The translations under genes were made by a program, and so were the position numbers. Shown here piece after piece: positions 42,260-42,715 of a stretch of 64,000 bases of DNA. The notes beneath the pieces were generated by a model. That model did not search any database. It was not told the origin of the DNA and saw only the letters and a list, made by a program, of their open reading frames with translations. The DNA is from a phage. The stretch lies in the sequence record PZ154896.1. One strand, written 5' to 3'. Positions within the stretch are counted from its first letter, which is position 1. The number at the start of each line of letters is the position of its first letter.

Positions 42260-42715
42260 TTATTTTAGATCTTCGGCCCAATCTAGTTTTAAGGGTTCTT
42301 TGTATTCACGGTCGAGAATAACCGGAATAGCTACATCACCACTGAATGATAGTTGGCCAACGTTATATGATAACGTTATATGTGGAGTGTAGTCGTCGAA
42401 ATCATGAGTAGCACCTAAAGCTCGTGCATACTGATGACGACATCTAAGATATTCGGAATCAAGAACTAAAACCAGTACAGCGCCGTCGTCAGTTTTCCAT
42501 ACCTCAAAGTGTCCTGATTCGGCAATAGAATAACTACCACTAGACGTAGTATATGGTATGTTTACACGTGAATAACAAATTGTTGAATGAAGCTTTTCAC
42601 GTGGTACTGGATTAGGAATTCTTAATTTACGCTGGAGGTCTTCCAGCGCATCAAGTGTTAATTCCGAAAATTTAGCTGCGACGTAGAGGCCTTGTGAAAA
42701 GTCCTCAAATTTCAT
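42260..42715 (-). CDS. 57B: 2H-phosphoesterase 57B (Acb1-type anti-CBASS nuclease homolog)
   Basis: 151 aa; two H-x-T/S motifs (HSTI, HITL); position between ipI and 57A as T4 57B. Confidence 0.7.

Follow-up and report, generated by a model that had tools for sequence, protein, structure and literature searches.

A probable Mosigvirus orthologue of T4 gp57B/Acb1 encoded directly downstream of gene 57A

The 64,000-nucleotide stretch of phage DNA analyzed here (record PZ154896.1, referred to as the window) contains an open reading frame (ORF) whose product is very probably the T4 gp57B/Acb1 orthologue of a Mosigvirus (RB69-like coliphage), a compact, metal-independent phosphodiesterase of ~150 amino acids with a 2H fold. 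This identity is supported by membership in the Acb1 family, the conserved residues, the fold, the gene order shared with T4, and purifying selection. Catalysis, substrate range, and an anti-CBASS effect in vivo are predicted for this orthologue by homology to the Acb1 proteins of T4 and FBB1. The original prediction, made from the sequence alone, had proposed a candidate Acb1 anti-CBASS nuclease. The assignment to the Acb1 family stands in view of the match to Pfam PF23474, the identity to the T4 protein, the conserved residues, and the fold; the term nuclease calls for a small refinement, in that enzymes of this family are 2H phosphodiesterases that linearize cyclic di- and trinucleotides 3' of adenosine and are not general nucleases. 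Neither the Acb1 family nor the sequence of the gene is new. Acb1 has been a characterized family since 2022, for which a Pfam model as well as crystal structures are available, and identical acb1 genes are found in several deposited genomes.

The identification of T4 gene 57B as Acb1, to which the original prediction had referred, was indeed reported by Hobbs et al. (2022, PMC9117128), who used activity-guided fractionation for degradation of cGAMP. T4 lacking acb1 loses the cGAMP-degrading activity and exhibits a >300-fold defect on CBASS-positive hosts (PMC9117128). The reaction is metal-independent and proceeds in two steps, with an intermediate that carries a cyclic phosphate 3' of adenosine (PMC9117128). 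Function of T4 Acb1 requires H44, T46, H113, and T115, as well as Y12, W74, F107, W147, E141, and a C-terminal lid (amino acids 145–152); E141 contacts N6 of adenine, Y12, W74, F107, and W147 are stacking residues, and the lid becomes ordered upon binding of ligand (PMC9117128). The C-terminal lid of Acb1 is required for catalysis (10.1101/2025.08.21.671373).

The original prediction gave the position of the ORF and its length of 151 amino acids. Both were confirmed by the ORF list and translation, and the minus strand, which had not been given, is added in Table 1. A homologue of the tail-fibre chaperone 57A (phrog_1002, E = 8e-26) directly precedes acb1 on the same strand, and no gap separates the two genes; a homologue of gene 1 (dNMP kinase; phrog_139, E = 2e-59) is also found upstream. 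The order of genes 1, 57A, and 57B is that of T4, as had been proposed when the ORF was placed at the 57B position. On the coding strand, the junction between 57A and acb1 reads ...GAAGAAGAATAATGAAATTT, and the stop codon of 57A overlaps the start codon of acb1 in the sequence TAATG; the corresponding start context in T4 is ATGATGG. This overlap suggests co-transcription of the two genes and possibly translational coupling; acb1 is probably both co-transcribed with and translationally coupled to 57A.

Table 1 Positions of acb1, its functional elements, and other features in the window.
Feature	Position	Strand	Details
acb1 (57B homologue), coding sequence	42260..42715	minus	ATG-to-TAA ORF; 151 aa plus TAA stop; ORF list and translation
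First catalytic motif, H43-S44-T45 (in LHSTI)	42581..42589	minus	Codons CAT TCA ACA; corresponds to T4 H44/T46
Second catalytic motif, H112-I113-T114 (in PHITL)	42374..42382	minus	Codons CAT ATA ACG; corresponds to T4 H113/T115
C-terminal lid, residues 144–151	42263..42286	minus	LDWAEDLK (T4 145–152, LDWADDLK); includes base-stacking W146
TAATG, overlap of 57A stop and acb1 start	42713..42717	minus	One shared base, 42715
57A homologue, tail-fibre chaperone	42715..42945	minus	76 aa
T4 late-promoter consensus octamer TATAAATA (candidate late promoter)	43300..43307	minus	Within gene 1; 57A start lies 362 nt downstream
ipI junction	42187..42259		Alignment to Mizar (L002) 2888..3315 and T4 (L001) 3592..3952
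Promoter-like element, GTTTACA-17 nt-TATAGT with TG extension	42217..42246	minus	GTTTACAT motif belongs to it
Second, near-identical copy of promoter-like element	33590..33620	minus	2 matches in window, 0.06 expected
ORF for 102-aa neighbour of acb1	41878..42186	minus	phrog_2667 'internal head protein'
tRNA cluster	40200..40354	minus	Arg(tct) and Met(cat)
ORF for 88-aa Acb2 homologue	26786..27052	minus	Likely ATG start (MSIEDIK...)

The Acb1 profile of Pfam (PF23474) matches the protein with 196.8 bits, compared with a gathering cut-off of 27, and residues 8–149 align with profile positions 1–144 of 144. Phmmer returned E = 7.9e-59 to the sequence of the FBB1 Acb1 crystal structures (PDB 7T26/7T27). 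In the alignment to T4 Acb1 that the original prediction had called for, BLASTP found 128 identities among 151 residues of gp57B (NP_049750.1; 85%, E = 2e-102) with no gaps, and the complete catalytic tetrad was aligned. A scan of the protein against NCBIfam gave zero families at E ≤ 1; the NCBIfam library lacks an Acb1 model, and this null result is therefore no argument against membership. One search of a large protein database yielded 86 homologues, all but one of which (85 of 86) carry PF23474, and several bear the UniRef name 'Anti-CBASS protein Acb1'.

The two H-x-(T/S) motifs from which the original prediction started, LHSTI and PHITL, were recovered by a regular expression search (H.[TS]) as exactly two matches, both of which prove to be H-x-T and neither H-x-S. 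The count of motifs by itself is weak evidence: the composition of the protein (5 His and 21 Thr plus Ser) leads to an expectation of 0.69 matches and a Poisson probability of ~0.15 for two or more. The motifs acquire meaning from their positions, which coincide with the columns of the T4 Acb1 tetrad (H44/T46/H113/T115) and are invariant in the homologues described below. Both catalytic histidines, the loss of either of which had been named as an outcome against the prediction, are present as H43 and H112 in those columns. With residues of the window protein numbered one lower than their T4 equivalents, all nine functional residues of Hobbs et al. (2022) are retained (Y11, H43, T45, W73, F106, H112, T114, E140, and W146). 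The base-stacking aromatic residues Y11, W73, F106, and W146 and the adenine-reading E140 are identical to T4 Y12, W74, F107, W147, and E141. The sequence also predicts a C-terminal lid of the Acb1 type.

Conservation was examined in an alignment of 53 sequences that are 29–99% identical to the query. H43, T45, H112, and T114 are invariant across these homologues. Among the other contact residues, Y11 and E140 are each found in 51/53 sequences and W146 in 49/53. W73 is Trp or Phe in 52/53 and F106 is Phe or Tyr in 52/53. At the nucleotide level, acb1 is 74% identical to its T4 counterpart with pS of 0.72 and pN of 0.12, which yields a dN/dS of ~0.06 with synonymous sites saturated. This value indicates that the product of acb1 is under strong purifying selection.

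An AlphaFold2 model of the window protein, built on an alignment of homologues from which the T4 sequence row had been removed, has a mean pLDDT of 89.4 and a pTM of 0.82. Confidence in this ligand-free model is low only at residues 1–5 and 146–151. Low pLDDT in the latter stretch fits a lid segment that becomes ordered only with bound substrate. When the model was compared with structures in the PDB using Foldseek, the best match was 7T26 with TM scores of 0.87/0.96 and a root-mean-square-deviation (rmsd) of 0.9 Å over 136 columns. The next match was 7T27 with an rmsd of 1.5 Å; TM scores across 7T26 and 7T27 ranged from 0.86 to 0.96. Further down the ranking were the phosphodiesterase of Burkholderia phage BCSR5 (4.4–6.7 Å), followed by cellular 2H enzymes of the LigT type.

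These matches place the window protein among known 2H phosphodiesterases at increasing distance. T4 gp57B shares with it the tetrad, the aromatic residues, the glutamate, the C-terminal lid, and the genomic position. The T4 protein has one extra N-terminal Met and is otherwise equal in length; the two differ by 23 substitutions, all of them outside the nine functional residues. Acb1 of Erwinia phage FBB1, crystallized in the apo form (7T26) and in complex with 3'3'-cGAMP (7T27), is a more distant orthologue from a phage of another host genus. It is 61–63% identical to the window protein, superposes closely in both states, and differs by one single-residue indel in the β-hairpin that follows W73. 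PDE-9 of BCSR5 (9Q2G/9Q2Y) has a 2H fold, belongs to the Acb1 structural group, and cleaves 3'3'-cGAMP (10.1101/2025.08.21.671373), but it is only 15–18% identical to the window protein and matches it weakly in sequence (E = 0.008). The lid of PDE-9 is N-terminal and the enzyme spares 2'3'-c-di-AMP (10.1101/2025.08.21.671373), whereas the lid of the window protein is C-terminal. E. coli LigT and other cellular 2H phosphoesterases (PF13563) share the superfamily fold and two H-x-T/S motifs, but they are larger (~170–185 amino acids) and have neither the lid nor the aromatic cage of Acb1.

By homology to the T4 and FBB1 enzymes, we propose the following mechanism. A U-shaped β-sheet pocket would take up the cyclic di- or trinucleotide produced by the CD-NTase of the host CBASS system. 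Y11, W73, F106, and W146 would stack on the bases of the ligand, E140 would read N6 of adenine, and the C-terminal lid would shut over the bound nucleotide. The H43/T45/H112/T114 tetrad would provide acid-base catalysis: the 2'-OH of adenosine would attack the 3'-5' phosphodiester to generate a 2',3'-cyclic phosphate intermediate, which would be resolved to a linear product with a 3'-phosphate. Removal of the CBASS signal would leave the effectors off, so that the infected cell would not be killed before the phage finishes.

It is conceivable, but quite improbable, that the protein belongs to the Acb1 family but accepts a different range of substrates from T4 Acb1; such an enzyme might, for example, avoid setting off Panoptes guard systems by sparing 2'3'-c-di-AMP or cA3, or might counter mainly type III CRISPR systems that signal through cA3. 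Room for a shift is provided by the 23 substitutions that separate the two proteins, and a precedent by PDE-9, a divergent phage 2H phosphodiesterase that exhibits selective avoidance; its enzyme core, not its lid, determines substrate selectivity (10.1101/2025.08.21.671373). Selective pressure in this direction exists as well. A promiscuous Acb1 can be a liability in that it triggers Panoptes guard systems. Type II Panoptes restricts Acb1-carrying Tevenvirinae, and these phages escape it by mutation of acb1 (PMC13577387). With Panoptes of type I, T4 Acb1 has given mixed results: overexpression triggers the system, and deletion of acb1 from the phage is without effect (PMC12657218). Substitutions in the core might weaken cleavage of the Panoptes decoys (2'3'-c-di-AMP or cA3) while cleavage of CBASS signals is kept, a variant to which we likewise assign little probability; if true, it would allow escape from guard systems that detect promiscuous Acb1. 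Against a shift, every named substrate-contact residue is the same as in T4 and the lids differ by one Asp-to-Glu exchange, so that the sequence offers no hint of altered substrates. Moreover, most of the substitutions are conservative exchanges (I/V, D/E, Y/F, and L/I), and the pocket is most likely unchanged at 85% gapless identity. Given the 23 substitutions and the selectivity set by the core of PDE-9, fine specificity cannot be read from sequence. Two papers on Panoptes, searched for this purpose, contain no direct tests of a Mosigvirus acb1.

Less probable still is that the protein acts on RNA ends in the repair of tRNA or other RNA, as a LigT-like 2'-5' RNA ligase or 2',3'-cyclic phosphodiesterase. 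This reading would agree with the label 'RNA ligase' attached to phrog_755 and to many RefSeq phage records, with a weak Pfam match to PF13563 (2_5_RNA_ligase2, E = 0.012), and with the presence of LigT structures among the distant Foldseek matches. However, the match to PF13563 is partial (residues 69–131) and its score of 16.1 bits lies below the 27-bit cut-off and far below that of the Acb1 profile. LigT superposes poorly, with TM scores of 0.44–0.58, rmsd values of 6.6–8.6 Å, and 13–17% identity, as opposed to 0.9 Å for Acb1. In addition, the T4 orthologue is a cGAMP-degrading enzyme as judged by fractionation and by disappearance of the activity from T4 without acb1 (PMC9117128). We reject the 'RNA ligase' reading on the basis of the sub-threshold PF13563 score and the poor superposition; the label goes back to the 2H superfamily to which both belong and not to a tested function. 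The chance that the ORF is an inactive remnant, or that it is spurious with accidental H-x-T motifs, is negligible: although two such motifs are not rare for a protein of this composition, the ORF is intact and of full length, dN/dS is low, the tetrad is invariant, tblastn finds a homologue in 1,470 phage records, and the PF23474 match and identity to T4 exclude both possibilities.

Having identified the gene as an acb1 orthologue, we turn to its expression signals and surroundings. The T4 late-promoter consensus octamer TATAAATA occurs inside gene 1, and T4 also has it, 363 nt ahead of its own 57A start. Over the whole window, TATAAATA was found 9 times with 8.1 expected; it is thus not enriched, and only the position conserved with T4 carries weight. 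As a positional hint, we consider this copy a candidate late promoter for 57A and acb1. Its position is compatible with the Acb1 activity that appears ~15 min into T4 infection (PMC9117128). Between 41500 and 45500, sites resembling sigma-70 promoters were no more frequent than chance would give (14 found, 13.2 expected). A scan of the same interval for terminators yielded no convincing candidate downstream of acb1.

In T4, as in the 97%-identical phage Mizar, acb1 is followed directly by the ipI cassette, which encodes internal protein I and is annotated as a nuclease inhibitor. The cassette is absent from the window and from phage phi25-307, which leaves a gap of ~355 bp in the alignment. 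Both edges of the gap in Mizar carry the repeat GTTTACAT, and the junction in the window falls at the repeated GTTTACAT motif. This arrangement suggests that the cassette was lost or gained by recombination between repeated promoter elements. The promoter-like element at the junction overlaps a perfect 12-bp hairpin, GATAGGACTATG...TATAGTAGTCCTATC, with a free energy of -19 kcal/mol (z = -4.6). The element resembles the promoter-early stem-loop cassettes of T4-type phages. The neighbour of acb1 on the other side of this junction encodes a protein that matches phrog_2667 with E = 4e-41 and gives no Pfam match; it probably belongs with IPI among the injected internal proteins.

Comparison with deposited genomes places the acb1 region among those of closely related phages. 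Over 2 kb, the best match was Escherichia phage EP02SG (PQ301181), with one mismatch; Shigella phage phi25-307 (Mosigvirus, Tevenvirinae) was 98.4% identical over the same region. The single mismatch with EP02SG falls inside acb1 (99.8% identity). In nucleotide sequence, acb1 agrees completely (100%) with the genes of HX01, vB_EcoM_JS09, SSE1, and HY126. Over this stretch, none of these records by itself thus corresponds exactly to the window. Similarity to acb1 at the level of megablast extends to 155 phage records. The tRNA cluster of the window consists of just two genes; the T4 cluster comprises eight tRNAs and the homing endonuclease segB, and that of Mizar contains an additional tRNA-Asn and a homing-endonuclease-like ORF.

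Homologues of acb1 have been annotated as 'hypothetical protein', 'RNA ligase' (RefSeq and PHROG 755), 'putative phosphodiesterase', or 'anti-CBASS Acb1-like protein'. The last of these names was given to the near-identical gene of phage Mizar, while the 'RNA ligase' label from RefSeq and PHROG 755 is attached to acb1 in dozens of T4-like genomes. The assignment made here corrects the widespread labels 'RNA ligase' and 'hypothetical protein' in records of T4-like phages. The acb1 gene of the window also provides a natural allele for comparing the specificity of Acb1 between Tequatrovirus and Mosigvirus.

Elsewhere in the window, an ORF encodes a protein that is 64% identical to T4 Vs.4 (Acb2, a sponge for cyclic oligonucleotides) and that matches the Acb2/Tad1 hairpin domain of Pfam (PF24729) with 64.8 bits. 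The ORF list extends this gene to a TTG at 27220, upstream of the likely ATG start. As judged by sequence, the phage would encode homologues of both known T4 anti-CBASS proteins, Acb1 and Acb2. Because an Acb2 homologue is present, the role of Acb1 in evasion of CBASS may be partly redundant in vivo. The combination of Acb1 with the Acb2 homologue predicts that the phage resists many CBASS systems. At the same time, the phage may be susceptible to guard systems of the Panoptes type, which detect when cyclic nucleotides become depleted. These predictions for CBASS and Panoptes bear on the host range of the phage and on the choice of phages for therapy.
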